DNA from: Candidatus Omnitrophota bacterium
GTDB taxonomy: Bacteria > Omnitrophota > Gorgyraeia > 2-01-FULL-45-10
Assembly (NCBI GenBank): GCA_003142795.1
Contig: PLNN01000017.1
Span: forward strand, 512-64,511
Reading direction: 5' to 3'
Length of the DNA: 64,000 nucleotides
Part shown: positions 23 to 51,848 of the stretch, piece after piece
Numbering within the stretch: position 1 is the stretch's first letter
Layout of the letters: each line of letters starts with the position of its first letter
The notes under the pieces: model-generated
Database searches by the model: none
What the model was told of the DNA's origin: nothing
The model's input: only the letters and a program-made list of their open reading frames with translations
Program-made: the position numbers and the translations under genes

Positions 23-1057
23 TCAGCGTATCTTATTAAGTTTCTCCAGTTCCATGATCCTATAAGAGCATTTCGTGCACGCGTCTACCTCGTGAGACCG
101 CCCGGCCTTGTGGATGTCCCTATAGTTATCGAAAGCCTTGCTGTGCCACATTTCATATAATGAAACATCCTTAGCGTTGCCCAACGTCATCGCCTGAGCG
201 TCTTTGACGCCATGGATGAGGCACGGAAAGACTGTACCGTCCCACAGTATCATCATCCTTTGCCACAGAAACGGGCATGCCCAATCGCCTTTTAAGTCCA
301 TGCTCGATCCGTCATGCGCGCAATGATAATCCTTTTTAGACTCATCTCTTGCGTCCAGATAAGAGACTTCATCCACTACCGGCTGCCAGAACTTTACATA
401 GTCGCCGAAGGACTCTTTCAGCTCCGGCAGGAGAACTGTCTGTATGCGGATCGCGGGAATAAGGCTCTTTTGTTTGTCGCGCAATTTACGCAGCATCTTT
501 ATCTTCTTCACGACATCTTCATACCGCGCCCCTACCCGGTACCGTTCATATACATCTTTTTTGGTTCCTTCAAACGATATGGAAATACGGTCAAGTTTTG
601 ATGCAATCAGCCTGTTAACTATATCTTCATTTAGAAGAGTGGCATTCGTATTAAAATAGACGTCGACGATCCCGGCCTTTTTTGCATAATCGACCATTTC
701 TACAAGCTGTTTGTGTAATAGAGGCTCTCCCCTGAGGCTAAGTTTTATAGAGAACAAATTACGGGAAACTCCTTCATTAATAATTTTTTTAAACAGCCCG
801 AAGTCCATGAACCCCTTCTCCTCTGGACCCCACTCGTTGAATGTGGAAGCACAAAAAGGACAACGTAAATTGCATAATGAGGTAGCCTCGATATCGAGGT
901 GGATTGGGAATTCTCCGACTGTAAAATTGGCCGGATAGTCATGCCATCTCTTCCTGTATTCTTCAAATCGTTCGTTCCCCGACTTCACATCGAATACCGA
1001 TGTCCGGGTAGCAGTATGAAAATTCGAATTTGCCTGGATATTGATCTTTTTATTCAT
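23..1057 (-). CDS. radical SAM enzyme with C-terminal SPASM/twitch-type cysteine cluster
   Basis: 344-aa ORF. CNLRCPFC (CxxxCxxC) radical SAM motif near the N-terminus. Cys-rich C-terminal region (CPF..CLIHG..CTKCS). Confidence 0.65.
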   Translation of the reverse strand: MNKKINIQANSNFHTATRTSVFDVKSGNERFEEYRKRWHDYPANFTVGEFPIHLDIEATSLCNLRCPFCASTFNEWGPEEKGFMDFGLFKKIINEGVSRNLFSIKLSLRGEPLLHKQLVEMVDYAKKAGIVDVYFNTNATLLNEDIVNRLIASKLDRISISFEGTKKDVYERYRVGARYEDVVKKIKMLRKLRDKQKSLIPAIRIQTVLLPELKESFGDYVKFWQPVVDEVSYLDARDESKKDYHCAHDGSSMDLKGDWACPFLWQRMMILWDGTVFPCLIHGVKDAQAMTLGNAKDVSLYEMWHSKAFDNYRDIHKAGRSHEVDACTKCSYRIMELEKLNKIR

Positions 1058-1066
1058 ATGCGAATA

Positions 1067-1819
1067 TCACTTATCATGCGACGTAGTTGCTTCGTTAAAA
1101 CCGTACCTTTTCAACCAGTACTCCACCATCGGGACCTGCCACTCGTAATCAACATCACAGCCGCCCTCCTGCTTTAGCGGCAGTATTTTCTTTCCCATCC
1201 ACCTTTGCGGCAATAAGCCGTCTTTCAGAGCTTCAAGACATTTGGGCCTTACTATAGAGACGCTTGTGTCAAAGAACCATACGTCACCCTGAGAATCCCT
1301 GTCGCAATTCAATGTCTTCGGGTTTCCGAATGTTTCAAAAGGGACGAATGGATGCAGCAGCCCGTCAGCCCCTACCTTTCTTGCTCTCAGCGGGCTCCAC
1401 ATGTTATAACGCGAAACCGAGATCGCCGAGTCGGCTTCGGGATGCGCCCTTAGCAAAGTTATACCGCGATCGATCAGATCGGAGGTAACTGTCGGGGCGT
1501 TACAAAATAGGAGCACCAGAAATTCGATATCTTTCTTCAGCTCATCTTTTATATATTGATATCCGTGGACATATGCATCTTCGCCAAGCGCCTCTTTTGT
1601 GCATAAATAAGCCGGCCTTTTTATGATTTCGACTCCGCGGGAGCGTGCCAGTTTCATAAGTTCTTCATCATCCGTCGAGAGATATGACCTATCAACTTCG
1701 GCACAGCCAATTGCCGCTTCCATAGGATATGATGCCATCGGTTTACCCAAAACTTTGAATAGATTTTTGCCGGGGAACCCCTCGCTCCCCTTTCTTCCTA
1801 TCAATACCGCAATTACCAT
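1067..1819 (-). CDS. acylneuraminate cytidylyltransferase-family CMP-sugar synthetase (copy 1 of 3)
   Basis: 250 aa. N-terminal GRKGSEGFPGKN resembles the NeuA/PseF/KdsB nucleotidyltransferase P-loop-like motif. Size is typical of CMP-NulO synthetases. Confidence 0.6.
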   Translation of the reverse strand: MVIAVLIGRKGSEGFPGKNLFKVLGKPMASYPMEAAIGCAEVDRSYLSTDDEELMKLARSRGVEIIKRPAYLCTKEALGEDAYVHGYQYIKDELKKDIEFLVLLFCNAPTVTSDLIDRGITLLRAHPEADSAISVSRYNMWSPLRARKVGADGLLHPFVPFETFGNPKTLNCDRDSQGDVWFFDTSVSIVRPKCLEALKDGLLPQRWMGKKILPLKQEGGCDVDYEWQVPMVEYWLKRYGFNEATTSHDK

Positions 1820-1820
1820 T

Positions 1821-2987: not shown

Positions 2988-3033
2988 AATTATTTTAAAT
3001 TCCTCACCAGCCTATTTTATTCAGGTTCCAGGG

Positions 3034-3747
3034 CTATCTCTTTATTATATTATCAACGTCTTTGATCCTCTGATATACTTTAAGCACATCCTGCTCGTCT
3101 TTTCTGTTTACCACTAACGGCTTTCCATTTGCAGGTCTTAATAATTTGACAAGCATAAAACCATTCCTGCCAAATTCATATTCCCATAACCGCGGATAGA
3201 GGACCCCAACGCCGTCATCGCCCACCATTATCACGTATTTACGCGACACTGCGCACATGTGTTTTATCACATCAAATGAGGGATGCACGAGAGATATGGT
3301 ACTCCCGCCCGAATAGACAAGATCGAACTGCCGGTTATCGGAAACAAGTTTCGGCAGCACCTCCTCGTAACTACCCGCGATCAACTCAACGTTCGAAAGA
3401 TCGAATTTCTTCTTACCATGCTCTATTGCATTCTTGCAGATATCCACCCCGATCAACTTGCTATACCCCAGTTTCTTCATAGCGCTTAGCATAAAGCCGC
3501 AATTGCATCCCAGATCGAGTATCGAATCGCTCTTAGCGATCCTGGCCTCTATCTCGCCGAACAATGTTGGGGTGTGCTTATTGGTGTCGGCTTCATACTT
3601 ATCGTATCCGTGGGGATCTCTGTTTTTCTGATGTTTCCAATAGTTTTTTTGTAAATTTCTTGAAGGATCCAATTTAAAAACAAATCTAGGACAGAAAGTA
3701 AAAAATGGACTCTGTTTATAACTTTTTTCCCTGAATAATCCGAACAC
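3034..3747 (-). CDS. class I SAM-dependent methyltransferase
   Basis: 237 aa. ILDLGCNCGF glycine-rich SAM-binding motif I. Confidence 0.65.
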   Translation of the reverse strand: MFGLFREKSYKQSPFFTFCPRFVFKLDPSRNLQKNYWKHQKNRDPHGYDKYEADTNKHTPTLFGEIEARIAKSDSILDLGCNCGFMLSAMKKLGYSKLIGVDICKNAIEHGKKKFDLSNVELIAGSYEEVLPKLVSDNRQFDLVYSGGSTISLVHPSFDVIKHMCAVSRKYVIMVGDDGVGVLYPRLWEYEFGRNGFMLVKLLRPANGKPLVVNRKDEQDVLKVYQRIKDVDNIIKR

Positions 3748-3767: not shown

Positions 3768-5585
3768 CTAGATCATGATTTTGTTAGTATTATACATCTC
3801 ATGGTATAACCCTTTTATATCCATCAGCGCCTGATGGCTGCCTTCTTCCAAAATCTTCCCGTCTTTAATCACCAGGATCTTGTCGGCATGCATAATAGTG
3901 GAGATCTTATGCGCGATTATAATAACGGTTCTGCCTCTTGCTGAATTATCTATGGCCCTCTGGACGGCTATCTCGGATATGTTGTCCAGGGAATTTGTGG
4001 CTTCATCTAATATCAATATTTCCGGCTTCCTGAAGATGGCCCGCGCTATGGCTATCCGCTGCCTTTGCCCGCCCGATATCTTAATCCCTCTATCGCCGAT
4101 CACTGTATCATATCCCTGCGGAAATTGACTTATAAAATCGTGAGCATTGGCCTCTGTTGCAGCGCTGATCACTTCTTCCATATCAGCATCTTTGGTGCCG
4201 AGCGCAATATTATCCTTGATCGTTCCATGAAAAACAAAACTATCCTGCGTAACTAAGCCTATCTTGCCGAGCCAAGAAGATATGCGAACATTGTTCAGGT
4301 CTATATCATCTATGAATATGCTTCCTTTTGAGGCAGTTAATAGTCGCAGTATAAGATCTACTATGGTGGACTTACCGGATCCGGAGAACCCTACAATAGC
4401 CACGCTGGTACCTTTCTTTATATCAAAGCTAAGATCATTAAACAACGGATCGCGCCCCGGATACGAGAAAGATACGCTTTTAAATGAGATCTTGTCGCTG
4501 AATTTTTTTATCTCTACCATGCCGTCATGCGGCTTCGGGAAATCGGCCATAATACCATACGCTATCTCCACAACAGGAAGAAGCCCGAAAAAAGAGACCA
4601 CCTGGACGCCGAGAAGATTAAAGCATGGGATGATCCTCTGGATAGCGTACCCGACTATGGCGATAATTGGCAAGCTGCTGATAAAACTATTGGCGTAATA
4701 ATACTTCGATACCATCAGAAGGGCAATGAGTGATGACATCACCAAAAATTCGATTATAGCCGGCGGCAATAATAACCATACCGCTTCTTTAATAGTAATG
4801 CGTGAATATCTAACGACCGACGCCCTGAATCTTTCTACCCAAGCGCCGATCGACATAAATACTTTTATCTGCTTAATACCGGTAAATGCTTCGGCGGCAA
4901 TCTCATTTTGCTGTTCAAGCTCAAGGACCTTCTCCGCGCCTAAGCTATATGATACCTTTTTGCCTATAGCCCTTGTTACAAAATAATAAAAAGCAGTCAA
5001 TACGATAATAAATACCGTAACTTTAGGCGATATGAAAAAAAGCATCGCGATTATGACCAGTATCCTTAAAGCATTTACGGCAATTCGCGGTATATAATCA
5101 AAAAAAGTTGATGCTTCCAGAGGAACAGTTATGGTTCGGTGAATAAGCCAACCGTGTTTATGATTAAAGAAAAAGGTATACTCTGAATTTAAAAATCTAT
5201 TGAAAATAGCGTTATGAAAATCTCTCTTAATTTTATATGAAAAGTAACACCCAAGGAACTGACTAAGAAAAGAGAATAAAGCTTTTACTAAAAAACTTAT
5301 TATTAGCAATACGCAGCTCAGGACAAATATATTTTTTATAGCTACGTGATCCGAAATAAACGATATGATCAATGGAATTTTTGAAGGCGATTGAATCGAG
5401 ACCATTCGTTCCAGGGTCTGATTTAAAACTGTGTAAATCAATGCTATGTTGATGCCTTCCATCACCGCGAATACGACAAGTGAAAAGAATACCATCAAAA
5501 CAAGAAACCTGTATGGCCTCAGTAGAAATAGGATCATTTTATAAGTCTGATTTTTCGTAAAATTAAATTTTGCCGCACTACTCAT
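3768..5585 (-). CDS. ABC exporter, fused permease and ATPase half-transporter (MsbA/lipid-A-flippase-like)
   Basis: 605 aa. Six-TM N-terminal half; Walker A GFSGSGKST; ABC signature LSGGQRQR; Walker B ILILDEATNSLD. The true start may be the internal Met at MILFLL. Confidence 0.8.
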   Translation of the reverse strand: MSSAAKFNFTKNQTYKMILFLLRPYRFLVLMVFFSLVVFAVMEGINIALIYTVLNQTLERMVSIQSPSKIPLIISFISDHVAIKNIFVLSCVLLIISFLVKALFSFLSQFLGCYFSYKIKRDFHNAIFNRFLNSEYTFFFNHKHGWLIHRTITVPLEASTFFDYIPRIAVNALRILVIIAMLFFISPKVTVFIIVLTAFYYFVTRAIGKKVSYSLGAEKVLELEQQNEIAAEAFTGIKQIKVFMSIGAWVERFRASVVRYSRITIKEAVWLLLPPAIIEFLVMSSLIALLMVSKYYYANSFISSLPIIAIVGYAIQRIIPCFNLLGVQVVSFFGLLPVVEIAYGIMADFPKPHDGMVEIKKFSDKISFKSVSFSYPGRDPLFNDLSFDIKKGTSVAIVGFSGSGKSTIVDLILRLLTASKGSIFIDDIDLNNVRISSWLGKIGLVTQDSFVFHGTIKDNIALGTKDADMEEVISAATEANAHDFISQFPQGYDTVIGDRGIKISGGQRQRIAIARAIFRKPEILILDEATNSLDNISEIAVQRAIDNSARGRTVIIIAHKISTIMHADKILVIKDGKILEEGSHQALMDIKGLYHEMYNTNKIMI

Positions 5586-5616: not shown

Positions 5617-7029
5617 TTATATCGACCCTTCACTATCTTGCATATTTTTCGGCGAACGGTAGTACTGTGTCTTAACTAGATTTTCTTGCTTAATGCCCAT
5701 ATCCAATATCTCATTGCATCGCTTAAGGCCCTCCAAAACGTTGAATTCGAATTCTTTATCGCTCATCTTTGTCATATTCAAGCGCAAATCCTGACGATCG
5801 CCTAACTGCATCAGGTATTCTTCTTCATCTTTAATAAAACCATGTTGGATAGCGTAAGCATACATCGGCGAACCAGGCTGAGGGAGCAGATACCCTGCGG
5901 AAGGATAAATTCTATTTTTGATACAGCAGTCAAAAGTTTCTTTAATCGTCAGAGGAGTCTCTTCCGGATATCCGAATACCAGGCTTGTCCATACTGGCAA
6001 TCCCGCCTTGTGAAATAAAGACGTTTGTCTTGAAAACTGCTCAGGTGTAATGTATTTACACATTGCCTTAAGGATCTCCCGATCGGCTGACTCCAAGGAA
6101 TATGACATACCTAAACATCCAGCTTCTTTCATCTTGTATATAATTTTCATATCTTCATCGCTGGTAAACAAATTTGCACGACAATTAGCCGTCCAGTAAA
6201 AATGTAAATTTTTATCTACTATTTCCTGCGCCATCTCCAAAGCATGCTCCTTAGAATAAAACGTAAGCTCATCCCAGAAGAAAATATAATTCACTCTGTA
6301 TTTTTCGATGGAATGTTTTATTTCATCTACAATGGATTTTGGGGTACGGGGCCGGTATGGGCTCCCGTAAAAATTATGATAGCAGAAGGTGCACTTTGAA
6401 ATGCAGCCCCGTGCCGTATTAACCGGAAGCGCTCGAATTTCTTCTCTGGCTATCGGCAAAGGATCTTTTACTGAAGTTTTAGAATTCTCAATGTATAGCC
6501 CAACATCAAAGATAGAAAAATCTAATAAAGGCATATCTGATATATTTTTAATATTAGGCCGGGCAGGAGTCCTGACAATCGTGCCATTTTTTGGAAAACA
6601 AATGCCTTGTACTGTTTCAAGCGCCCTGCCTTCGTCAATGGCGCGCAGTAAATCCACGATGGTTTCATCACCTTCTCCCATTACTGCGATATTAACCATC
6701 GTACGCGTTAAAAGAGTGTCCACAATCGAAGTTGCTACGGAATTGCCAACAATAATTTTCGCATGGGGTTGATGTTTCTCAATCAATGCCGCTAATGCTT
6801 TAATAATCTTATAGCCTGTGACAATGCAACCCATGCATACAACGTCATATTTTTTCTTTTTGATACTATTCTCCACGTCGCGCTCTGATAAGCGATGCCC
6901 GTCGATATCTAGAAGATCAAAACTGAATCCGGCGTTCTTTATAGCTGTAGCGATATACCCAAGGCCTACGGGAAATAGCTTAACGGGTGACACGGGCCTT
7001 AAGGAAACATTGATGATCAATATGTTCAT
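5617..7029 (-). CDS. B12-binding-domain radical SAM enzyme (class B radical SAM, candidate C-methyltransferase)
   Basis: 470 aa. N-terminal Rossmann-like cobalamin-binding region followed by a CxxxCxxC-type motif (CISKCTFCYH). Confidence 0.65.
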   Translation of the reverse strand: MNILIINVSLRPVSPVKLFPVGLGYIATAIKNAGFSFDLLDIDGHRLSERDVENSIKKKKYDVVCMGCIVTGYKIIKALAALIEKHQPHAKIIVGNSVATSIVDTLLTRTMVNIAVMGEGDETIVDLLRAIDEGRALETVQGICFPKNGTIVRTPARPNIKNISDMPLLDFSIFDVGLYIENSKTSVKDPLPIAREEIRALPVNTARGCISKCTFCYHNFYGSPYRPRTPKSIVDEIKHSIEKYRVNYIFFWDELTFYSKEHALEMAQEIVDKNLHFYWTANCRANLFTSDEDMKIIYKMKEAGCLGMSYSLESADREILKAMCKYITPEQFSRQTSLFHKAGLPVWTSLVFGYPEETPLTIKETFDCCIKNRIYPSAGYLLPQPGSPMYAYAIQHGFIKDEEEYLMQLGDRQDLRLNMTKMSDKEFEFNVLEGLKRCNEILDMGIKQENLVKTQYYRSPKNMQDSEGSI

Positions 7030-7748
7030 GCTGCTCCTCTTAAAATCTTATACTTCAGTTGCGCCATTTTCCAATCTTCCTCGTTATCCAGATCCTGTGC
7101 TTCGGATTCCGTTATCTCAATAGGAACCGTATTGTCCGTGAATATCTTTCTCGTCTTTAAGAAAGCTGTGGAATCTAGCCAATAAAACTGTCCTGCATCA
7201 TGATAGGCGGGCATCAGGTTTTGGGACCTGGAATCAATGTTTTCGGGCCGTATCATCGACAAACGGCCGCCCTCTATCTTCAGCGCCCTCTGGATAGGGT
7301 AACCGAAACGCACAACGGGGATAACAGAGTCAGCATTTCTTTCCTTGAGCAGATCAAAAGCTTCTTTTAGCCTCCGGGACGTTAAAAAAGGCGCCGTAGG
7401 ATATATGCAGCAGCAATATTCAAAATTATCGCCTCTTTTTTTATATTCTAAAAGCACCTCTTCTATCACATCTGCCGTGGTCGCAAAATCGTCTGAGGTA
7501 TGCTTCGATCTCAAAAAAGGGACTTTTGCGCCAAATGAAATGGAAATATCGCGGATCTCTCTATCATCTGTAGAAACCACGACTTCATCAAAACAATGTG
7601 ATGTCAGCGCGGCATCTATTGAATATTTTAATATGGGCTGCCCCATAAAATCTCTGATATTTTTTCGCGGTATTCGTTTGCTTCCGCCGCGAGCGGTAAT
7701 AATAGCTACGCACTTATCCATTTTCTGCCTCCACGCCGATCTCGTCAT
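7026..7748 (-). CDS. pseF: pseudaminic acid cytidylyltransferase-like (CMP-NulO synthetase, copy 2)
   Basis: 240 aa. VAIITARGGSKRIPRKN motif typical of PseF/NeuA. Sits within the pseB-C-G-I neighbourhood. Confidence 0.65.
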   Translation of the reverse strand: MTRSAWRQKMDKCVAIITARGGSKRIPRKNIRDFMGQPILKYSIDAALTSHCFDEVVVSTDDREIRDISISFGAKVPFLRSKHTSDDFATTADVIEEVLLEYKKRGDNFEYCCCIYPTAPFLTSRRLKEAFDLLKERNADSVIPVVRFGYPIQRALKIEGGRLSMIRPENIDSRSQNLMPAYHDAGQFYWLDSTAFLKTRKIFTDNTVPIEITESEAQDLDNEEDWKMAQLKYKILRGAA

Positions 7749-35284: not shown

Positions 35285-35314
35285 TTGACGGCTTACAACA
35301 AGAAGTTGTATAAT
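35285..35314 (+). promoter_or_regulatory. sigma70-like promoter for the plus-strand CDP-sugar operon
   Basis: -35 TTGACG (35285-35290), 18-nt spacer, -10 TATAAT (35309-35314). GGAGG RBS at 35335-35339, ATG at 35343. Confidence 0.55.
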
Positions 35315-35342
35315 TTAAAGCATTATTAAACCCGGAGGTTCT

Positions 35343-41847: not shown

Positions 41848-41853
41848 TACGAA

Positions 41854-44338: not shown

Positions 44339-45267
44339 ATAGATTTAAAATAATCTATCGTTCGCGACAGCCCTTCTTCCAGGCCGACCTTAGGCTGCCA
44401 CTTAAGCATCTTTTTGGCTTTCGCGATATTGGGACGCCTGACTTTTGGATCGTCGACGGGAAGCGCCTTATAGACAATCTTGCTTTTTGAATTTGTGAGC
44501 ATGATTATTGTCCGGGCGAGTTTCAAAAGGGTCATTTCATTTGGATTCCCGATATTTACCGGATCATTTTCTTTAGACATCAAAAGTTTGTATATTCCAT
44601 TTACAAGGTCAGATACGTAACAAAAACTCCTCGTCTGCGAACCGTTGCCATAGACCGTGATCGGTTTATTATCCAGCGCCTGGTTGATGAAATTAGGTAT
44701 TGCCCTGCCGTCATTCTCGCGCATTCTCTCTCCGTAAGTATTGAATATGCGAACGATCTTTGTATTGATCCCATGATAACGATGATAGGCCATCGTGATC
44801 GCTTCGGCAAAACGTTTTGCTTCATCATAAACGCCGCGCGGGCCGATCGGGTTGACGTTCCCCCAGTAACTTTCCGGCTGAGGATTGACCAGCGGGTCAC
44901 CGTATACTTCGCTGGTAGACGCGAGAAAAAATACGCATCTTTTAGCCTTGGCCACTCCTAAGGCATTATGTGTGCCCAGAGCCCCGACTTTTAGCGTCGG
45001 GATAGGATATTTAAGATAATCTATCGGGCTTGCAGGAGAGGCGAAATGCAGAATATAGTCGATCCTGCCTTTTATGTTTATCTTTTCGGAAACATTATGT
45101 TTGACGAACTTGAAATTTTTTCCGGCGAAGAGATGTTCTATATTCTCGATCTTTCCTGTTATAAGATTATCCATGCATATTACATCATAACCTTTGCCCA
45201 GGAATAATTCGCAAAGATGCGAACCTATAAAACCCGCGCCGCCCGTTATTAATACTTTTTTTCTCAT
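44335..45267 (-). CDS. uxs: UDP-glucuronate decarboxylase (UDP-xylose synthase)
   Basis: 310 aa. [14 protein letters not shown]; [10 protein letters not shown]; YDEAKR catalytic motif. Confidence 0.75.
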
Positions 45268-46196
45268 TTATTTTTGAACCATTCTACGGTACGTTTTAGC
45301 CCTTCCGTGAAATGGACTATCTTCTTTATCTTCAAAAGCCGCTTCATCTTGCTTATATCGGCGTAACTTTTCCGCACGTCTCCCGGCCTTTTTGGGCCAT
45401 GCTCCGGCTTGATATCCGTCTTCAGCATCTTATTAAGCGTATTGACTATATCGATAACCGATGTTGTAGTCCCGCAGGCTATGTTAAAAACCTCGCCTGA
45501 TATTCCGGGCGTGAGGGCGGCCTTTAAATTCGCTTCGACGACGTTCGCCACGTATGTAAAATCCCTGGATTGTTTACCGTCCCATTCGACTACCGGCATC
45601 TCTCCCTTCATCAGATTAAAAATGAACATCGGTATGACCGCAGAATATTTTGATTCCGGGTTCTGGCGCGGCCCGAAGACATTAAAATATCTTAAAGATA
45701 CCGTCTCCAGCCCGAACGTTTTCGCGAATGTAACACAGTAATTCTCCGCCGCGAGTTTCGATACGCCGTAAGGCGATATGGGCGAGGCGTGATCCGTCTC
45801 TTTTTGCGGGAATTTTTTTACATCCCCGTACGCGGAACTTGATGACGCGTAAACTACCCTTTTGACCTTATTGTCCCTTGCCGCTACCAGGAGATTCAGC
45901 GTTCCGAAAACATTCACCTCGTTGGACATAAAAGGATCTTCGACCGACTTGGCTACAGAGCGCAGCGCTGCCTGGTGTATCACGAAATCAACGCCCCTCA
46001 TGCTCGAGTCCAGCGCTTTCCTGTCCCTTATATCGCCCTCTATAAGCTCTATCCTGTTCAAAAAAGGCTCTATGTTCTCTTTTTTGCCGGTTATGAAATT
46101 ATCGAGGACACGCACTTTTTCGCCGCGCCGCACCAGCTCCTCGACTATATTCGAGCCTATGAACCCCGCCCCGCCCGTAACAAGATAATTTGCCAT
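45264..46196 (-). CDS. NAD-dependent UDP-sugar 4-epimerase (WbpP/TviC-like)
   Basis: 310 aa. [13 protein letters not shown]; SSSSAYG; YGVSK. Confidence 0.65.
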
Positions 46197-47521
46197 TACA
46201 GCCTCACTATGTTCGATCTTTTGGTTATGCCTTTCAGCACGTTCCTGGTGTCAACCACCAGGTCGGAATTATCCGCGATAAATTTATAATCTACGTTGGT
46301 ATGGTCGGTGACGATCACTACGCAGTCGGAATCTTTAAACGAATCTTTATTGAACGGAACGCCTTTCAGATTTATATCGTGTATCTTTAGATACGGCAGG
46401 TATGGGTCGTAATAAGAAACGATCGCGCCTTTTTCCATCAGGAGATCTATTACCTCCAATGACGGGGATTCGCGCAGATCCTTTACGTCTTTTTTGTACG
46501 CAACTCCGACCACCAGCACCTTCGAACATCTTAGCGGCTTGCGCTGATCGTTCAGCCCCTCGATAACTTTATCAACGACGTAATGCGGCATCTCTGAATT
46601 GACCTGCGACGCAAGATCTATGAACCGTGCCTCAAAACCGTGCATGCGCGCCTTCCATGAAAGGTATATGGGATCCACGGGAATGCAATGGCCGCCGACG
46701 CCCGGGCCCGGATAGAACGGCATGAACCCATACGGCTTGGTCTTGGCCGCGTCTATCACTTCCCAGACGTCTATGCCGAGCCTGTCGCACATGAGCATCA
46801 GCTCGTTGACCATGGCTATATTGACTATGCGGAACGTGTTCTCCAGGAGCTTTACCATCTCTGCAACCTTGCTCGATGAGACGGGGATAACCGTATCGAT
46901 GGCCTGCTCGTATAACGTTTTAGCGATATCCGTGGAATTCCGGGAAATGCCGCCGATGATCTTAGGGGTATTTTTAGTAGCATACTTCTCGTTGCCCGGG
47001 TCTATTCTTTCGGGGGAGAAGGCGAGATAAAAATCCTTCCCTTCTTTCAAGCCGTCCGATTCAAGTATAGGCAGCATCACTTCTTCGGTCGTGCCGGGAT
47101 AGGTAGTCGACTCAAGAACTATTATCTGGCCCCGCTTCATGTATTTCTTTATGTTATTCACGGCCGAGACTATGTATGAGACATCCGGTTCTTTTGTCTT
47201 ATATAACGGCGTCGGCACGCAGATGATAACGGCGTCACATTCTTTTATACGCCCGAAGTCGGCGGTAACGGCAAATCTTTTTTTAGCCATCGCATCTTTT
47301 ATATCCGCGGACGATACATCCAGGATATAAGATTTATGGCTATTGAGCCTCTTTATCCTGTCTTTGTCAATGTCGATGCCGTAAACCCTGAATCCCTTTT
47401 TCGCAAAACTAAGCGCCAGCGGCAAGCCGACATAGCCCAGCCCTATTATCCCTATCCGCGCTTTTATGTTCAATATCTTCTCTTTCAATAATTTCAACAT
47501 GTTCCTCTCCTTATTGATCAC
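46196..47521 (-). CDS. UDP-N-acetylhexosamine 6-dehydrogenase (WbpA/TviB-like nucleotide-sugar dehydrogenase)
   Basis: 441 aa. IGIIGLGYVGLPLA Rossmann motif. Catalytic Cys region GPGVGGHCIPVDP. Confidence 0.7.
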   Translation of the reverse strand: MINKERNMLKLLKEKILNIKARIGIIGLGYVGLPLALSFAKKGFRVYGIDIDKDRIKRLNSHKSYILDVSSADIKDAMAKKRFAVTADFGRIKECDAVIICVPTPLYKTKEPDVSYIVSAVNNIKKYMKRGQIIVLESTTYPGTTEEVMLPILESDGLKEGKDFYLAFSPERIDPGNEKYATKNTPKIIGGISRNSTDIAKTLYEQAIDTVIPVSSSKVAEMVKLLENTFRIVNIAMVNELMLMCDRLGIDVWEVIDAAKTKPYGFMPFYPGPGVGGHCIPVDPIYLSWKARMHGFEARFIDLASQVNSEMPHYVVDKVIEGLNDQRKPLRCSKVLVVGVAYKKDVKDLRESPSLEVIDLLMEKGAIVSYYDPYLPYLKIHDINLKGVPFNKDSFKDSDCVVIVTDHTNVDYKFIADNSDLVVDTRNVLKGITKRSNIVRL

Positions 47522-48416
47522 CTGGTAGATACTCTTTTAATGCGTCTTTCCAATCACGCAATTTATAGCCGGTAAATCCTGCAAATTTTGAATTATCTAA
47601 TATCGACATCGCCGGCCGTTCTGCAGGCCTGTCCAGCTCCTTCGACGAAATAGCGATAACTTCCGTTTTAGAGCCGCTCAATCTTAATATCTCTTTCGCG
47701 TATCCATACCACGATACGCTTCCCGAATTCGACACATGGTACGTTCCGTAACCCGTAACTTTATCTAACAATGTATGTATCGCTTTCGCCAAGTCAACCG
47801 TATACGTCGGCGAACCGACCTGACCATCAACGACTTTTAATACTTTTTCGGTTTTTGCTTTAGCGATTATCGTATCGACAAAATTTTTGCCGTGTTTTCC
47901 ATATAGCCAGCTCGTGCGAAGTATGAAATATTCTTCTGCCTCTTTTTTTATCGCTTCTTCGCCTTTTAATTTTGAATCGCCGTATACGCTCAAGGGGCTG
48001 GGCTTATCTTCTTCCGTATAAGGAGCTCTCTTTTTTCCATCAAAGATAAAATCCGTGCTGATATGTATCAATACCGCGCCGGCGCTCCTGCATGCCCCAG
48101 CCACGTTCCCCGCGCCTTCGGCATTTATTTTATATGCTTTTTCACCGGCCGACTCGCATCCGTCGACATCCGTCATCGCCGCAGTGTGTATGACAACATC
48201 GGGCTTTACCAGTGCTATTATTTTTGCGATCGCTTCTCTGTTGGTTATGTCACTCTTGAAGAAACTCGTGACTCGTGACGTGTGACTTGTAAGCAAATCG
48301 GTTCCGATTATCTCACAGTCTTCCGCCAGCTCCTGACAAAGATCGATCCCAAGCATGCCGCTTGAGCCCGTTATTAGTATTTTATTTCTTTCCGGCATTT
48401 GATCAGTTTCTTCCAC
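47511..48416 (-). CDS. rmlD: dTDP-4-dehydrorhamnose reductase
   Basis: 301 aa. ILITGSSGMLG; YGDSK. Position follows rmlB. Confidence 0.75.
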   Translation of the reverse strand: MEETDQMPERNKILITGSSGMLGIDLCQELAEDCEIIGTDLLTSHTSRVTSFFKSDITNREAIAKIIALVKPDVVIHTAAMTDVDGCESAGEKAYKINAEGAGNVAGACRSAGAVLIHISTDFIFDGKKRAPYTEEDKPSPLSVYGDSKLKGEEAIKKEAEEYFILRTSWLYGKHGKNFVDTIIAKAKTEKVLKVVDGQVGSPTYTVDLAKAIHTLLDKVTGYGTYHVSNSGSVSWYGYAKEILRLSGSKTEVIAISSKELDRPAERPAMSILDNSKFAGFTGYKLRDWKDALKEYLPGDQ

Positions 48417-49354
48417 CAGGGCTCGTTTCGTTCATACCATTCTACGGTCAGCTCTAACGCCGACCTGAAATCATGCCTTGGTTGCCATCCGAGTTTTTTC
48501 AGCTTTGCTATGTCAAGAGAGTATCTCTTGTCATGCCCGGGCCTGTCTTTAACAAATTCTATGAGAGAGCGCGACTTACCGAGAATACCCAATACTGTAT
48601 GCGTCAGTTCAAGATTCGTTATTTCGCTGCCCGCGCCTATATTATAGACCTCTCCCGGCGTTCCTTTCCGGATAACGGCATCGATGGCTTCGCAATTATC
48701 TTCGACGAACAGCCAATCCCGGACATTCATCCCGTCCGCGTAGAGAGGTAACTTTTTATTCCGGAGGGCATTCGTTATAAAGAACGGTATCACTTTTTCC
48801 GGATATTGGTAAGGCCCGAAATTGTTCGAGCTTCTCGTTATTATGACGGGCAATTTATATGTTATGTAATAGGACCTGGCCAAGAGATCCGCGCCGGCCT
48901 TTGTCGCTGAATACGGGCTGTTCGGCTTAAGAGGATCGCCTTCCTTGAACGAACCCTCGATTATACTCCCGTAGACCTCATCGGTAGATATCTGGATGAA
49001 TAATCCGGTACCGTGCTTTTTAGCCGCTTCAAGCAGGGTATGGGTGCCGAAGACATTCGTCCTGACAAAAGAAGCGGGATCGCTTATCGACCGGTCGACA
49101 TGCGTCTCTGCGGCGAAATTTACTACGATATCGCTCTTTGCGACAAGGCTATTGACCACTTTTGAGTCTGTAATGTCGCCCTTTACGAATTTATATCTTT
49201 TATTCCCGGCGCAATCTTTCAGGTTATCGAGATTGCCGCAGTAAGTGAGTTTATCGAGATTGGTAACGAAATAATCATCATGCTTACCAAGGACCTGCCG
49301 AATAAAATTGGAGCCTATGAAACCGGCTCCGCCCGTGACAAGTAGCTTTTTCAT
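48374..49354 (-). CDS. rmlB: dTDP-glucose 4,6-dehydratase
   Basis: [17 protein letters not shown]. The start was chosen at the internal Met that forms an ATGA overlap with the rmlA stop. The tracked ORF extends to 49438. Confidence 0.8.
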   Translation of the reverse strand: MKKLLVTGGAGFIGSNFIRQVLGKHDDYFVTNLDKLTYCGNLDNLKDCAGNKRYKFVKGDITDSKVVNSLVAKSDIVVNFAAETHVDRSISDPASFVRTNVFGTHTLLEAAKKHGTGLFIQISTDEVYGSIIEGSFKEGDPLKPNSPYSATKAGADLLARSYYITYKLPVIITRSSNNFGPYQYPEKVIPFFITNALRNKKLPLYADGMNVRDWLFVEDNCEAIDAVIRKGTPGEVYNIGAGSEITNLELTHTVLGILGKSRSLIEFVKDRPGHDKRYSLDIAKLKKLGWQPRHDFRSALELTVEWYERNEPWWKKLIKCRKEIKY

Positions 49355-50091
49355 TTGCATCCTGACCTTTGTTCCATTTTTGCTACAAGATTGTTCGCCC
49401 GCAATAACGAATCGAACGTCCCCGAATCGGTCCACCATCCGTTGAGTATGCTGTATGTAAGCTCGCCCCTTTTAAGATACGCATTATTTACATCCGTTAT
49501 CTCGAGCTCGCCCCTTCCGGACGGCCTCAATGTCTTTATTATATCGAATACCTGGTTGTCATACATATATATGCCGGTCACGGCATAATTGGATCTCGGC
49601 TTTCTTGGTTTTTCCACGATCGATATGATCTTTTTATCTTTCAATTCCGCGACGCCGAACCTCTCCGGATCTTCCACTTCTTTCAATAGTATCCGCGCGC
49701 CTCTCGGCTGGTCCCTGAATTCATCCACGGATTTTTTTATGCTCTTTTCGATTATATTGTCGCCGAGGATAACAACGATCTTATCCTTATCGACAAAATG
49801 CCTGGCAAGCTTCAACGCATCCGCTATGCCGCCCTCGCCTTCCTGATACGTATAATTTATGTGTTTGAGCCCGAACTGCGCGCCGTTACCGAGAAGCCTT
49901 AAGAATTCTCCGGCATGCATACCGCCCGTTACGATAAGTATGTCCTGTATGCCTGCGTCCACCAGTGTCTGTATGGGATAATAGATCATCGGCTTGCAAT
50001 AGATCGGCAATAAGTGCTTGTTCGTTATTTTAGTCAACGGATAAAGCCTTTTGCCCAAGCCGCCCGCCAGTATAACGCCCTTCAGTCCCAT
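49351..50091 (-). CDS. rmlA: glucose-1-phosphate thymidylyltransferase (short form)
   Basis: 246 aa. GVILAGGLGKRLYPLT nucleotidyltransferase motif. Confidence 0.7.
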   Translation of the reverse strand: MGLKGVILAGGLGKRLYPLTKITNKHLLPIYCKPMIYYPIQTLVDAGIQDILIVTGGMHAGEFLRLLGNGAQFGLKHINYTYQEGEGGIADALKLARHFVDKDKIVVILGDNIIEKSIKKSVDEFRDQPRGARILLKEVEDPERFGVAELKDKKIISIVEKPRKPRSNYAVTGIYMYDNQVFDIIKTLRPSGRGELEITDVNNAYLKRGELTYSILNGWWTDSGTFDSLLRANNLVAKMEQRSGCK

Positions 50092-50094
50092 ATT

Positions 50095-50541
50095 TTATTT
50101 TCTCCAATCGTATGGTATGTCATTATCATATTCATCAAGCCTGAACTCGTCGGGCTCTTTGTAATTATACGGTAAGGTCACCGTATTTATAACGACCGCT
50201 TCGCAGTCGCTGATACATTTGAAACCGTGATAAACCAGTTTCGGTATGGTGACCACCATGGGGTCTTCGAGGCTTATAATAAAATCATTCACCTCTTTGT
50301 ATGTGGGAGACTTCGGCCGCGCGTCATAAAGGGCAAGCCTCATCTTCCCGCTGATGCATGTAAAATTGTCGTCCTGTTTTTTATGATAGTGCCAGGCTTT
50401 TACCACCCCGGGATAAGCGGTGGTCATGTAGACCTGGCCGAATTTTTTGAAAGCCTCATCGTCAGACCTCAATATCTCCATGAGCCTGCCGCGCTCATCG
50501 GGGATGATCTTTAGTTTTTTGACTTTCACGCCCTCTATCAT
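50095..50541 (-). CDS. rmlC: dTDP-4-dehydrorhamnose 3,5-epimerase (short cupin form)
   Basis: 148 aa cupin with ERGRLME and HYHKKQ motifs. Sits in the rml operon. Confidence 0.7.
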   Translation of the reverse strand: MIEGVKVKKLKIIPDERGRLMEILRSDDEAFKKFGQVYMTTAYPGVVKAWHYHKKQDDNFTCISGKMRLALYDARPKSPTYKEVNDFIISLEDPMVVTIPKLVYHGFKCISDCEAVVINTVTLPYNYKEPDEFRLDEYDNDIPYDWRK

Positions 50542-50543
50542 CT

Positions 50544-51848
50544 TTACCGCCTTCCCATCCCGGCATACCTGAAACCCAGCTTCTTCATCTCCGCGGGATC
50601 ATAGATATTCCGGCCGTCGACTATGACCGGCTGCTTCATGAGTTTCTTTATCTTTTTGAAATCCAGCTCCTTGAACTCGTTCCATTCGGTAACTGCTACC
50701 AGGCAGTCGCTGTGCCTGGCTACGCTATATGCATCTTTACAAAATTCTATATCCTTGCCGAGCGCGGACAACGCGGCCTTTGCCTTATCCATGGCAGCCG
50801 GATCATAAACTTTTATCCTGGCGCCCTCCCTGTGCAGCATCTCGATTATGCCAAGCGCCGGCGCCTCTCTTATATCGTCCGTATCGGGCTTGAAGGCCAG
50901 CCCCAGGATGCCGATCGTCTTATTCGGAAGGTTCCAGAGAAGCTCCTCTATTTTCTTTACCAGGATCTTTTTCTGATGATCATTTATCTTCTGGACCTCT
51001 TTCAATAAACCAAAATCATACCCTATCTTATCCGCTATCCTCACGAATGCCGACAGGTCTTTCGGAAAGCACGACCCGCCGAATCCGATGCCGGCGTTGA
51101 GGAACTCTTTCCCTATCCTTCTATCAAGGCCTATGCCCCTGGAAACCTCGGTGATGTCGGCGCCTACCTTATCGCAAATATCTGACACCGCATTTATGAA
51201 AGATATTTTAGTGGCGAGGAACGAATTTGAAGCATGTTTTATTATCTCGGCCGATTTTATATCCGTAACCACTATCGGCGCGTTAAGCGGCTTGTAAAGT
51301 TCTTTTAATATGTCAGCGGCCTTTTTCGATTTGACGCCCACGACTATCCTGTCCGGGTTCATAAAATCTTTTATGGCTGACCCTTCCCGCAGGAATTCCG
51401 GATTGGACGCGACATCGAACTTTATATTGCGTTTATTGAAAACTTTTATGGTGTGCTCCACCCATTCGCCGGTGTTAACGGGGACGGTGGATTTTTCAAC
51501 GATAAGGCGGTATGACGACATAGAAAGCGCTATTTCGCGCGAAACATGCTCGACGAAGGTGAGGTCTGCTTCTCCATTATCCCGGGAGGGTGTCCCGACA
51601 GCAATGAATATAACCTCGCACTTTCGGATCGCGCTTCCTATCTTCGTATCGAAAGAGAGCCGCTTCTCTTTCATATTTCGCCTGACAAGCTCTTCCAGAC
51701 CGGGTTCGTATATAGGTATCACCCCGGATTTAAGCTTCTTGATCTTGGCGGCGTCTTTATCGACACATATGACATTATTCCCAAGGCTGGCAAAGCAAGC
51801 GCCGCTTACCAGGCCTACATATCCGGAACCTATTATGCATATATTCAT
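50544..51848 (-). CDS. ugd: UDP-glucose 6-dehydrogenase
   Basis: 434 aa. ICIIGSGYVGLVSG; GFGGSCFPKD catalytic Cys. Confidence 0.8.
   Translation of the reverse strand: MNICIIGSGYVGLVSGACFASLGNNVICVDKDAAKIKKLKSGVIPIYEPGLEELVRRNMKEKRLSFDTKIGSAIRKCEVIFIAVGTPSRDNGEADLTFVEHVSREIALSMSSYRLIVEKSTVPVNTGEWVEHTIKVFNKRNIKFDVASNPEFLREGSAIKDFMNPDRIVVGVKSKKAADILKELYKPLNAPIVVTDIKSAEIIKHASNSFLATKISFINAVSDICDKVGADITEVSRGIGLDRRIGKEFLNAGIGFGGSCFPKDLSAFVRIADKIGYDFGLLKEVQKINDHQKKILVKKIEELLWNLPNKTIGILGLAFKPDTDDIREAPALGIIEMLHREGARIKVYDPAAMDKAKAALSALGKDIEFCKDAYSVARHSDCLVAVTEWNEFKELDFKKIKKLMKQPVIVDGRNIYDPAEMKKLGFRYAGMGRR

Follow-up and report, generated by a model that had tools for sequence, protein, structure and literature searches.

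A large rare-sugar locus beside an lptD-like gene in an uncultured Omnitrophota bacterium, probably a cell-surface polysaccharide locus with a conserved anchor and variable cassettes

The 64,000-nucleotide stretch of Candidatus Omnitrophota contig PLNN01000017.1 analysed here, hereafter the window, is occupied from position 23 to 51848 by genes for the synthesis and transfer of unusual sugars. We read them, with a probability of about 0.8, as a chromosomal locus for cell-surface polysaccharide of the lipopolysaccharide (LPS) type in a diderm Omnitrophota bacterium, which starts right after an lptD-like gene and combines a conserved anchor with variable cassettes. It is a system of a known kind, unusually large, whose size and diversity mark the upper end of the known range and which is set to yield about ten unusual activated sugars. 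No overall function other than a decorated cell-surface glycan is reasonable for this set of genes.

Extent and organisation of the locus

The span under study, 23-51848, holds 50 genes (g01 to g50) according to gene calls and the open reading frame (ORF) listing. Their summed length makes up 98% of the span, and at 42 of the 49 gene junctions the neighbours overlap or lie no more than 20 bp apart. The genes lie on the minus strand from 23 to 34654, on the plus strand from 35343 to 43179 and again on the minus strand from 43181 to 51848, with a single divergent gap at 34655-35342 and a single convergent junction at 43179/43181. Furthermore, two exact-sequence look-ups showed that glycan genes on the same strand go on for at least 19.7 kb to the left of window position 1. 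The region in which gene families were looked for comprises the window and this 19.7-kb left extension, hereafter the 84 kb. The window matches ENA ERZ28656667 WOOD18-1_SAMN07125087_METAG-scaffold_60 (148,387 bp) with one mismatch in 17 kb, a window position being the scaffold_60 record position minus 44,806, and its proteins are also found both on long contigs elsewhere in the collection and on the fragmented contigs that Logan gives for run SRR7151659. The host is an uncultured diderm Omnitrophota bacterium, judging by its LptD-like protein together with the loci from metagenome-assembled genomes (MAGs) that match it.

A first-pass annotation, made from the window sequence alone, had described 23-51848 as an exceptionally dense glycan island with at least eight contiguous activated-sugar pathways. 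Contiguity and density are borne out over the 50 genes, and all eight pathways (8/8) find support at the gene level. The whole of 23-51848 is indeed glycan island, but these limits were too narrow, as at least 19.7 kb more follow leftward; likewise the density is real and the island very large, but "exceptional" is relative, comparable cassettes and loci being already known. Pfam confirmed the three family 4 glycosyltransferases (GT4; g26, g28, g32), the Wzx (g30) and the five class-I methyltransferases, and the pair of a family 2 glycosyltransferase (GT2) and an ArnT-like protein corresponds to g40 and the PMT_2 protein g41. The gene described as Wzy/GT-C-like, g29, encodes a PMT_2 enzyme of the GT-C class and not Wzy. 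The inventory had overlooked the cytidylyltransferase g02, the radical S-adenosylmethionine (SAM) enzymes g01, g03, g06 and g22, and g05, g08, g09, g19, g20, g24, g15 and g16.

A conserved anchor operon next to lptD

The genes nearest to the lptD-like gene form a minus-strand operon, which opens with the UDP-glucose 6-dehydrogenase Ugd (g50, 50544-51848; TIGR03026 488 bits against a cut-off of 189.8, TuaD model 595 against 700; scores are given in this form throughout). Leftward follow a divergent RmlC-family cupin of 148 amino acids (g49, 50095-50541; Pfam dTDP_sugar_isom 61.7 bits against 27, TIGR01221 40.3 against 155.75, PDB 3ejk 71.8), a short-form RmlA-like thymidylyltransferase (g48, 49351-50091; TIGR01207 267 bits against 360.65), RmlB (g47, 48374-49354; TIGR01181 461.7 bits against 365.1), RmlD (g46, 47511-48416; TIGR01214 318.8 bits against 224.05) and a UDP-N-acetylhexosamine (UDP-HexNAc) 6-dehydrogenase (g45, 46196-47521; TIGR03026 469.9 bits, PDB 4r16 251 and Cap5O 224). 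A WbpP/WbgU-like 4-epimerase of UDP-HexNAc or its uronic acid, UDP-HexNAcA (g44, 45264-46196; PDB WbgU 236.6 bits, WbpP 234.2), and, at the left end, a UDP-glucuronate decarboxylase (UXS; g43, 44335-45267; PDB human UXS1 351 bits) complete the block. The UDP-xylose pathway (Ugd and UXS) and the UDP-HexNAcA pathway (g45 and g44) proposed by the first-pass annotation are thus both present. Its dTDP-rhamnose pathway holds for RmlB and two RmlD proteins, all above cut-off, while RmlA and the RmlC-like protein are divergent and stay below the equivalog cut-offs. Both of the latter genes are conserved in place among relatives, g48 sharing 79-85% identity with its counterparts there.

To the right the operon is flanked by g51 (51991-54186, minus strand), which encodes a secreted LptD-like outer-membrane protein of 731 amino acids (PDB 7omm, LptD, E 3.1e-9; weak Pfam LptD_N match). 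A search with g51 returned 15 MAG loci with identity up to 63%, of which 11 are titled Candidatus Omnitrophota and 4 "uncultured Planctomycetia". Synteny was scored in those related contigs that are long enough to show gene order. The conserved order runs DnaJ, DUF1015, AsnB, corrinoid protein, AccD, ATP-binding cassette (ABC) ATPase, two GGDEF proteins and the LptD-like protein, and then through the anchor genes Ugd, RmlC-like, RmlA, RmlB, RmlD, dehydrogenase, epimerase and, in locus L018, UXS, with identities of about 50-90% in the closer relatives. Indeed, a counterpart of g44 is found at the equivalent position in L018 and L019 and one of g43 in L018 (81% identity). L019 retains the order up to the 4-epimerase, and L009, L010 and L015 retain it for as far as the contig, or the stretch retrieved, extends; L021 stands further off and shows partial synteny. 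Leftward beyond UXS synteny stops, and L018 has a different aminotransferase there. Judging by these comparisons, the 8.7-kb anchor, from ugd to uxs, appears to be vertically inherited and ancestral in Omnitrophota.

The gap between lptD and ugd (51849-51990, minus strand) contains a perfect inverted repeat of 25 bp around a 15-nt spacer at 51920-51984, followed by a T run, and a TGATATAAT-type -10 element; the folding energy of the gap as a whole is -52.6 kcal/mol. The inverted repeat probably acts as a terminator. At the matching place 7 of 8 relatives have a (TG)NTATAAT-like element, L019 carrying ATGATAAAAT there. Since the TGATATAAT-type element recurs in most relatives, the anchor operon would start within the gap, and a sigma-70-like promoter is predicted to precede it. 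Relatives also bear different GC-rich palindromes in this gap, L012 having a tandem triplicated element of about 70 bp, and small palindromic repeat elements may populate it.

Two observations concern the conserved flank. Between the ABC ATPase and the lptD-like gene, 54232-57044 (minus strand) encodes two tandem GGDEF diguanylate cyclases, one of them with GAF domains, which are kept at that position in relatives; hence genes of cyclic di-GMP signalling adjoin the envelope/glycan locus. The corrinoid protein g56 (59037-59804, minus strand; B12-binding and B12-binding_2) is conserved beside accD in related Omnitrophota and is of interest given the two B12-dependent radical SAM enzymes of the island, namely g06 and one in the left extension.

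Mosaic structure and contiguity of the region

The GC content at third codon positions (GC3) decreases from the housekeeping genes (0.57-0.67) through the anchor (0.45-0.62) to the variable part (0.37-0.59), with the lowest values in g06-g12, g15-g16, g24-g26 and g29. The comparison of GC and codon usage with the housekeeping genes, proposed in the first pass in view of horizontal acquisition, set apart the variable part by its lower GC3 and larger codon-usage distance; the 8.7-kb anchor appears ancestral. Gene order within the variable part is shared with GCA_041661085.1 (locus L028), in which a MarR regulator, a NeuB-like synthase, a radical SAM enzyme, a cytidylyltransferase, a class-III transaminase, a VOC protein, two methyltransferases, g16, g15, PseB and PseC follow each other in the same order at 50-86% identity. 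There, at the position of g12, a 498-amino-acid protein with GNAT domains is found, a PseG-GNAT fusion replacing g12, which is itself without the GNAT part, and the synthase is 32% identical to g11. This breakpoint of synteny between g12 and g11 coincides with a drop in GC3. Paralogues inside the island share 22-38% identity and are therefore old. We read this as exchange of cassettes within a fixed chromosomal locus, as the sequence comparisons suggest. This picture agrees with the population-variable polysaccharide cassettes that have been described in Omnitrophota (bioRxiv 10.64898/2026.06.07.730766).

A mosaic could also arise if sugar operons from several organisms had been joined in a chimeric assembly, since window GC (0.38-0.50) and GC3 (0.37-0.67) differ between blocks, Logan assembled that run into fragments, contigs of 2-24 kb, and contig k141_376227 of an independent MEGAHIT assembly (ERZ27254250, 124 kb) ends at window position 59722, inside g56. 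This is nevertheless extremely improbable. The tetranucleotide correlation of each island block with the housekeeping flank at 52-64 kb is 0.79-0.91, the controls being 0.77 for a same-organism region beyond the window, 0.65 for a distant Omnitrophota locus and 0.45 for Methanococcoides burtonii; the comparison of composition and gene order, including the search for tetranucleotide breaks by which the first-pass annotation would have recognised a chimera, revealed no sign of one. The housekeeping-island junction and the 59.7-kb point are syntenic in independent MAGs of other studies, and since the synteny of relatives spans 59722, the contig end there is an assembly break and not a misjoin. 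Furthermore, the gene order of window 12.4-24.1 kb is identical in GCA_041661085.1, a single Logan contig covers 22.4 kb to about 46 kb, crossing three block boundaries, and contigs of 50-200 kb carrying the gene are found in three collection blocks for g01, g06, g30 and g58. The same compositional contrast, with its lower GC3 and larger codon-usage distance in the variable part, together with modules common to distant taxa including an archaeon, would fit a recently acquired mobile genomic island covering the whole region, a reading which we hold to be very unlikely. Indeed, the window has no transfer RNA genes and its gene products no integrase or transposase family, and no flanking direct repeats were found, the repeat search, which did not reach the left boundary, giving only short imperfect repeats (an Rfam scan returned no RNA family). 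The right 8.7 kb appear ancestral, with their order kept across Omnitrophota, and the island paralogues are old. The pattern is consistent with cassette-wise recombination at a fixed locus and not with a single insertion.

A recurrent ulosonate module with a radical SAM enzyme

Within the variable part, a second ulosonate module on the minus strand is headed by a MarR/GbsR-type winged-helix regulator (g24, 23631-24125; CudC model 74 bits), whose counterpart in L028 stands at the equivalent position with 62% identity. It continues with a NeuB-family synthase without SAF domain (g23, 22700-23584; Pfam NeuB 258.5 bits; NeuB model 249.6 and PseI model 212, both below cut-off), a small BtrN-like radical SAM enzyme with a SPASM/twitch domain (g22, 21906-22703; Pfam SPASM 46 bits, Radical_SAM 30 bits) and a second cytidylyltransferase for a cytidine monophosphate (CMP)-ulosonate (g21, 21135-21890; Pfam CTP_transf_3 78.9 bits, PseF model 141.6 against 205.7). 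A class-III (omega-type) aminotransferase (g20, 19726-21135; Pfam Aminotran_3 279.7 bits), a VOC/glyoxalase-fold protein (g19, 19295-19729; Pfam Glyoxalase 72 bits) and two class-I methyltransferases (g18, 18606-19298, and g17, 17621-18616; both Pfam Methyltransf_23/11) follow. A second CMP-ulosonate pathway had been proposed in the first pass and is supported by the NeuB-family g23 and the cytidylyltransferase g21.

In g22, a protein of 265 amino acids, the translation displays a CX3CX2C motif (C17-X3-C21-X2-C24) and a C-terminal auxiliary Fe-S domain. Its top PDB sequence match is BtrN (E 1.5e-10, 44 bits), the 2-deoxy-scyllo-inosamine dehydrogenase of butirosin biosynthesis. With the twitch enzymes BtrN and NeoN it has in common a similar size, the N-terminal CX3CX2C, the C-terminal auxiliary-cluster domain and an aminotransferase partner. 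However, the match to BtrN is one of 44 bits, g22 is found beside a NeuB-type synthase and a CMP-transferase instead of in an aminocyclitol pathway, and the partner is a class-III transaminase where that of BtrN is of the DegT type.

A metagenome scan yielded 80 relatives of g22 at 47-86% identity. Neighbours, defined as genes within 6 kb, were counted in the 38 metagenomic loci of at least 9 kb with a g22 homologue. A g23-like NeuB gene is found near it in 34 of the 38 loci and a g21-like cytidylyltransferase in 31, while a B12 radical SAM gene is present in 19, a class-III transaminase in 15 and a VOC protein also in 15; Wzx and a g16-like GT-B protein often accompany g22 homologues as well. 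By its recurrence, the set of NeuB-like synthase, BtrN-like radical SAM enzyme and CMP-transferase appears to be an uncharacterised ulosonate module, and this core is widely distributed among environmental anaerobic bacteria. The transaminase is absent from about half of the g22-related loci, so that a role of g22 as an epimerase is equally possible. No paper linking radical SAM enzymes with nonulosonic acids was found in the literature searched, the coverage of which is incomplete; a search for pseudaminic acid and radical SAM returned unrelated papers only, and one for Omnitrophota and nonulosonic acids, as well as one for "PFTS motif", returned nothing.

Two unclassified GT-B proteins

Next to this module on the minus strand lie two genes whose products, g15 (14620-16410) and g16 (16394-17608), have no Pfam or NCBIfam match. 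Their AlphaFold 2 models (predicted local distance difference test, pLDDT, 88.9 for g15 and 90.2 for g16) both show a GT-B fold and distantly resemble UDP-N-acetylglucosamine 2-epimerases, TagF and GT1/GT20 enzymes, at 9-14% identity. The g15 family is small, with 141 clusters at 50% identity among 1.84 billion representatives, and in about a third of the g15 homologues listed a cytidylyltransferase is fused at the C-terminus, a functional tie between this family and CMP-activated sugars. Of the g16 family at least 161 members are on record, each with a hypothetical annotation; they share the invariant or almost invariant motifs HxxDYD and AAHPRS, and the HP element of the latter is reminiscent of the HP motif of bacterial sialyltransferases. 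Both proteins are candidate, and in our reading likely, CMP-ulosonate transferases.

No significant homology among g15, g16 and a 656-amino-acid protein of the left extension was found by BLASTP or profile comparison, and they are treated as three separate families. The fused cytidylyltransferase domain was considered as a pointer to the donor of g15 (the product of g02, g07 or g21) and rejected, the domain being distantly KdsB-like and equally far from all three.

The pseudaminic-acid module and the left end of the window

The minus-strand genes to the left of g15 include a pseudaminic-acid (Pse) module. The inverting 4,6-dehydratase PseB (g14, 13608-14606; TIGR03589 473.8 bits against 407.75), the aminotransferase PseC (g13, 12455-13615; TIGR03588 508.5 against 423.5) and the CMP-pseudaminic acid synthetase PseF (g07, 7026-7721; TIGR03584 303.9 against 205.7) score above cut-off. 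A PseG-like UDP-sugar hydrolase (g12, 11385-12461; TIGR03590 150.8 bits against 153.55) falls 3 bits short, and a NeuB/PseI-like ulosonate synthase with Pfam NeuB and SAF domains (g11, 10297-11352) stays below the cut-offs of both the NeuB (279.5 against 399.65) and the PseI model (261.5 against 340.25). The CMP-Pse-like pathway of the first pass thus stands for PseB, PseC and PseF, but less so for these two steps, and PseH is missing from the 84 kb.

In the same run are found a class-I methyltransferase (g10, 9446-10300; Pfam Methyltransf_23/11), a metallophosphoesterase (g09, 8747-9439; Pfam Metallophos; TIGR00040 62 bits against 56), an ATP-grasp ligase (g08, 7791-8744; Pfam ATP-grasp_3; NF009402 215 bits against 218) and a B12-binding radical SAM enzyme (g06, 5617-7029; Pfam B12-binding and Radical_SAM; HpnJ 149, BchE 142 and PhpK 109 bits, all below cut-off), which may act as a C- or P-methyltransferase. 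They are followed by a fused permease-ATPase ABC exporter of the MsbA/HepA/PglK type (g05, 3768-5585; HepA 378, MsbA 370 and PglK 240 bits, all below cut-off), a class-I methyltransferase (g04, 3034-3747; Pfam Methyltransf_31/25 and a weak match to a Pse-associated methylase model) and a twitch-type radical SAM/SPASM protein (g03, 1821-2987; NF033640 123.6 bits against 170; Pfam Radical_SAM and SPASM). At the left end lie a third, divergent CMP-type cytidylyltransferase (CTP_transf_3; g02, 1067-1819; Pfam PF02348 46 bits, PseF model 62.5 against 205.7), 24% identical to g07 and g21, and another radical SAM/SPASM protein belonging to this third cytidylyltransferase module (g01, 23-1057; Pfam Radical_SAM and SPASM, NCBIfam maturase matches below threshold); a pair resembling g01 and g02 is also found in L069.

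Among the about 70 glycan genes of the window and of the left extension (locus L026, 1-20663), no N-acetyl- or N-acyltransferase was recognised. Sugar aminotransferases number four in the window and one in the left extension, and class-I methyltransferases five and about four, to which the ATP-grasp ligase is added. Because acyltransferases are absent while methyltransferases and an ATP-grasp ligase are present, this suggests that the amino sugars are free, methylated or aminoacylated.

Amino-sugar, CDP-sugar and export genes

Between the anchor and the ulosonate module, the first gene is that of a WecE-type dTDP-4-amino-4,6-dideoxyhexose transaminase (g42, 43181-44338, minus strand; NF008687 557.6 bits against 375, TIGR02379 508.4 against 434.85). 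It faces a plus-strand operon made up of the glucose-1-phosphate cytidylyltransferase RfbF (g35, 35343-36125; TIGR02623 332.7 bits against 300.25), an RfbG-like short-chain dehydrogenase/reductase (SDR) resembling cytidine diphosphate (CDP)-glucose 4,6-dehydratase (g36, 36104-37105; TIGR02622 226.5 against 278.45), an SDR reductase/epimerase with generic SDR matches only (g37, 37102-38076), a thiamine diphosphate (ThDP)-dependent carboligase of the acetolactate-synthase superfamily (g38, 38066-39847; TIGR00118 514.6 against 538.35) and the RfbH/E1 CDP-6-deoxy-4-hexulose 3-dehydrase (g39, 39822-41150; NF011936 709.8 against 423). A GT2 protein resembling polyprenyl-phosphate-sugar synthases (g40, 41140-41847; AglJ 74.9 and PpgS 62.2 bits, both below threshold) and a PMT_2/ArnT-like GT-C membrane transferase (g41, 41854-43179; Pfam PMT_2 59.2 bits against 26.1) end the operon. 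The chemistry of YerE has been described (PMC12247030, PMC9306805). A YerE-like branching role is conceivable for g38, whose sequence does not separate it from acetolactate synthase (384 bits to acetolactate synthase II and 344 bits to 8rph in the PDB), and g37 may play a YerF-like role since it adjoins the ThDP enzyme.

The divergent intergenic region of 688 bp between the two operons (34655-35342) contains a promoter-like site at 35285-35314 on the plus strand, TTGACG-18-TATAAT, with 11 of 12 positions matching. A Cys-rich ORF of 94 amino acids (CCICCGDC...CC...C) at 34739-35023 (minus strand) is called in Logan and has no Pfam match.

The minus-strand genes left of this gap begin with a QdtB/FdtB-like sugar 3-aminotransferase (g34, 33548-34654; PDB 3frk, QdtB, 330.6 bits), a class-I methyltransferase of no specific family (g33, 32602-33540; Pfam and generic methyltransferase PDB matches), a GT4 (g32, 31460-32605; Pfam Glyco_transf_4 and Glycos_transf_1) and an FdtA-type dTDP-sugar 3,4-ketoisomerase (g31, 31035-31460; PDB 2pa7 128 bits, Pfam FdtA). 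A role of g33 as an N,N-dimethyltransferase of the TylM1/DesVI type, making a mycaminose-like sugar, was rejected, neither being among its 15 PDB matches, all of them generic methyltransferases. Then come the Wzx-type flippase (g30, 29540-31030; Pfam Polysacc_synt and Polysacc_synt_3, WzxE model 121.5 bits), the GT-C membrane glycosyltransferase of the PMT_2 family (g29, 28172-29533; Pfam PMT_2 41.6 bits against 26.1), a GT4 (g28, 26947-28188; Pfam Glycos_transf_1), a second RmlD-type reductase (g27, 26072-26950; TIGR01214 234.5 bits against 224.05; 33% identical to g46), a further GT4 (g26, 24984-26069; Pfam Glycos_transf_1) and a protein of 254 amino acids with a hydrophobic N-terminal stretch (g25, 24223-24987; weak Pfam Transglut_core, 24.4 bits against 23).

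Three pathways proposed in the first pass fall in this part. That to dTDP-4-amino-4-deoxyfucose is confirmed by the WecE score of g42; that to a dTDP-3-amino-3-deoxyfucose-like sugar is present with FdtA and a QdtB-like aminotransferase but without the N-acetyltransferase (FdtC/QdtC); and that to a branched CDP-3,6-dideoxy sugar is supported by RfbF and RfbH/E1, but g36 is below threshold and the E3 reductase is absent.

The left extension and its archaeal counterpart

The left extension encodes a sugar-phosphate isomerase-fold protein, a HisC-like aminotransferase, methyltransferases, a second B12 radical SAM enzyme, a 2-hydroxyacid dehydrogenase, SDRs, a cyclase-family protein and a HAD hydrolase. 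Its transferases are a GT2, a GT4-DUF218 fusion, another glycosyltransferase and a third PMT_2 protein. The protein of 656 amino acids at L026 5313-7283 (window about -4370 to -6340) has no Pfam match and reaches 237 bits against 250 with TIGR04326, the NCBIfam model O_ant_LIC13510 "surface carbohydrate biosynthesis protein".

A homologue of g16 with 41% identity is found in the cultured methanogen M. burtonii (locus L024; CP000300.1, 1661631-1682809), where it lies between genes of the legionaminic-acid type and Wzx. The block next to it encodes a cytidylyltransferase, an HpcH/HpaI aldolase, a 2-hydroxyacid dehydrogenase, an SDR, a cyclase, a HAD protein, a methyltransferase and a B12 radical SAM enzyme, and the order 2-hydroxyacid dehydrogenase, SDR, cyclase, HAD is the same as in the Omnitrophota left extension, at 30-44% identity. 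The locus has the g16 family and this neighbouring four-gene block in common with Methanosarcinales archaea. The block is, by this resemblance, a putative glycan module shared between domains, and may provide an aldolase-based route to a keto-deoxy acid activated with CMP.

Comparison with known systems and alternative readings

By analogy, the locus would combine the workings of a Wzx-type O-antigen or capsule cluster with those of a nonulosonic-acid glycosylation island. It shares with Wzx-dependent O-antigen and capsule clusters, as generally known from enterobacteria and the Leptospira rfb locus, nucleotide-sugar operons contiguous with GT4/GT2 genes and Wzx, a fixed chromosomal site, a GC below that of the core genome and a content varying between relatives, as well as, with O-antigen clusters, the TIGR04326 (O_ant_LIC13510) match of the 656-amino-acid protein. 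It differs from them by three PMT_2 GT-C enzymes, three CMP-type cytidylyltransferases, at least five radical SAM enzymes, a size of at least 71.5 kb and the lack of a recognised Wzy, Wzz, WaaL or initiating transferase. In other bacteria, rfb or glycosylation loci can also be very large, the Leptospira rfb locus measuring roughly 100 kb. To our knowledge, no glycan of Omnitrophota has been characterised. The polysaccharide cassettes of Omnitrophota (bioRxiv 10.64898/2026.06.07.730766) have in common with the present case the phylum and the idea of a variable surface-polysaccharide locus, here as an anchor followed by non-syntenic content in relatives; however, the documented cassette measures 25 kb, whereas the present locus is about three times larger and known from comparison of relatives, not strains.

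As regards single pathways, the PseB-C-H-G-I-F pathway and the islands of Campylobacter and Helicobacter are matched by PseB, PseC, PseF and a near-cut-off PseG in one operon with methyltransferases and tailoring genes; in contrast to them, PseH, flagellin and Maf are lacking here, g11 is below the NeuB and PseI cut-offs, and an ATP-grasp ligase, a phosphoesterase and a B12 radical SAM enzyme are added. The YerE-YerF pathway to yersiniose A and acyl-branched 3,6-dideoxyhexoses (PMC9306805, PMC12247030) is resembled through RfbF, a CDP-glucose 4,6-dehydratase-like protein and RfbH/E1, which share their operon here with an SDR and a ThDP enzyme of the acetolactate-synthase superfamily; the E3 reductase (DdhD/AscD) is lacking and g38 is slightly nearer to acetolactate synthase II than to 8rph. 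With the pathway to dTDP-3-acetamido-3-deoxyfucose or -quinovose, known from S-layer glycans and O-antigens, the locus shares the FdtA-like and QdtB-like proteins and RmlA/RmlB in the same locus; here, however, FdtC/QdtC is absent and in its stead the generic class-I methyltransferase g33 lies between FdtA and the aminotransferase. As PseH, E3, FdtC, Wzy, Wzz, WaaL, flagellin and Maf were not recognised in the 84 kb, we place the locus among surface-glycan loci in general and under none of the named pathway sets.

The function put forward in the first pass, a highly decorated surface glycan, is upheld, but it is probably not one glycan, and the genes of the 84 kb do not discriminate between its O-antigen, S-layer and flagellin alternatives. 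More than one glycan is probably made, because at least three routes of export or transfer are encoded: one through Wzx, one through the MsbA-like ABC exporter and one through GT2 together with the three GT-C enzymes of the PMT_2 family.

Several points weigh against reading the locus as a surface-polysaccharide locus as set out above. The wzz, wzy, waaL or flagellin genes for which the first pass had advised to look nearby were not recognised in the 84 kb; in particular, no initiating phosphoglycosyltransferase, Wzy, Wzz or WaaL gave a Pfam or NCBIfam match there, such proteins being divergent and possibly encoded beyond it, and a canonical Wzx/Wzy O-antigen pathway is hence not demonstrated. 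The gene products of the 84 kb include no GNAT or hexapeptide acyltransferase that could be PseH and no reductase of the ferredoxin-NADP-reductase or 2Fe-2S families that could be the E3 (DdhD/AscD/RfbI); without PseH the Pse pathway, and without E3 the CDP pathway, may give another product or use genes elsewhere. The assignments of g11, g12, g23, g21, g36, g38, g48 and g49 are below the curated cut-offs, all contigs are metagenome assemblies, and the total size of at least 71.5 kb is a lower bound, the left end not having been reached.

A locus serving mainly protein glycosylation, of flagellin, pilin or S-layer as in Campylobacter, would account for the Pse-type and nonulosonic pathways with many tailoring enzymes, which are generally typical of flagellin glycosylation islands, for the three PMT_2 GT-C enzymes, which belong to the protein-O-mannosyltransferase/ArnT superfamily, and for the occurrence of g16 homologues in S-layer-bearing methanogens. 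We regard this as unlikely. Among the gene products of the 84 kb no flagellin, pilin, Maf- or DUF115-type transferase or oligosaccharyltransferase (PglB, PglL, AglB) was detected, Wzx, the MsbA/PglK-like exporter and several GT4 proteins indicate assembly of lipid-linked oligosaccharides, and the locus abuts lptD. The two readings are compatible, as a lipid-linked glycan can end on protein. The part from about 0 to 24 kb also has the look of a cluster for an aminoglycoside or other glycosylated small molecule, with its BtrN-like radical SAM enzyme, class-III aminotransferase, enzymes like B12 radical SAM methyltransferases, ATP-grasp ligase, MarR regulator and ABC exporter. It contains, however, no 2-deoxy-scyllo-inosose synthase or other scaffold gene, homologues of g22 travel with a NeuB-family synthase and a CMP-sugar cytidylyltransferase (31-34 of 38 loci), often with Wzx and a g16-like protein, as would be expected where activated ulosonic acids serve glycoconjugates, and the module lies between Pse genes and Wzx/GT4 genes on one strand, which makes such a product highly improbable. 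A surface-polysaccharide locus of conserved anchor and variable cassettes thus remains the preferred reading.

Proposed scheme and significance

For this preferred reading we propose a scheme that starts from the observed gene identities, operon packing, synteny and recurrence of modules. The anchor operon would supply UDP-glucuronic acid, UDP-xylose, dTDP-4-keto-6-deoxyglucose, dTDP-L-rhamnose and UDP-HexNAcA, and the exchangeable cassettes at lower coordinates would draw on its sugar pools. WecE would turn dTDP-4-keto-6-deoxyglucose into a 4-amino sugar, and FdtA with its transaminase would divert it to 3-amino sugars. The plus-strand operon may produce an acyl-branched CDP-3,6-dideoxyhexose of the yersiniose type by YerE/YerF-type chemistry, with the E3 activity coming from elsewhere, and its GT2 and GT-C pair would carry out periplasmic transfer through a polyprenyl-phosphate sugar. 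The Pse module would make a derivative of pseudaminic acid whose 4-amino group would probably be acylated first, by the ATP-grasp ligase, and methylated afterwards, the phosphoesterase g09 and the B12 radical SAM enzyme g06 tailoring the product. In the second ulosonate module another CMP-ulosonate would be tailored by g22, acting as a dehydrogenase together with the transaminase and the methyltransferases or, alternatively, as an epimerase, and g15 and g16 would transfer the CMP-sugars. The GT4 and GT2 enzymes would build lipid-linked oligosaccharides, exported by Wzx and/or the ABC transporter, and GT2 with PMT_2 GT-C enzymes would add sugars in the periplasm; the ABC exporter g05 is grouped with the third set of cytidylyltransferase and radical SAM enzymes. 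Candidate acceptors are the LPS core, a capsule or protein.

More tentatively, and with the odds rather against it, the locus may make previously undescribed ulosonic acids tailored by radical SAM enzymes and transferred by two new families. Here the SAF-less NeuB synthase would make the acid, g22 would oxidise or epimerise it without oxygen, the class-III transaminase would aminate it, the methyltransferases would N-methylate it, the cytidylyltransferase would activate it with CMP and g15 and g16 would transfer it.

The general picture of surface-glycan synthesis is unchanged by these findings, and the least ordinary content of the locus is the radical SAM ulosonate module with the two orphan GT-B families. 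The module that joins a NeuB-like synthase to a BtrN-like radical SAM enzyme and a CMP-transferase could mark a new ulosonic acid that is formed without oxygen, a Pse pathway lacking PseH but equipped with an ATP-grasp ligase hints at aminoacylated pseudaminic acid, and g15 and g16 represent GT-B families without a Pfam or CAZy-style assignment, g15 being linked to cytidylyltransferases by fusions of the Rosetta-stone kind. The Omnitrophota are uncultured bacteria that are abundant, often of nano size and perhaps dependent on hosts. A rare-sugar locus of more than 70 kb beside lptD suggests that their cell surface is a major and probably variable investment, which bears on their interactions with phages and hosts.

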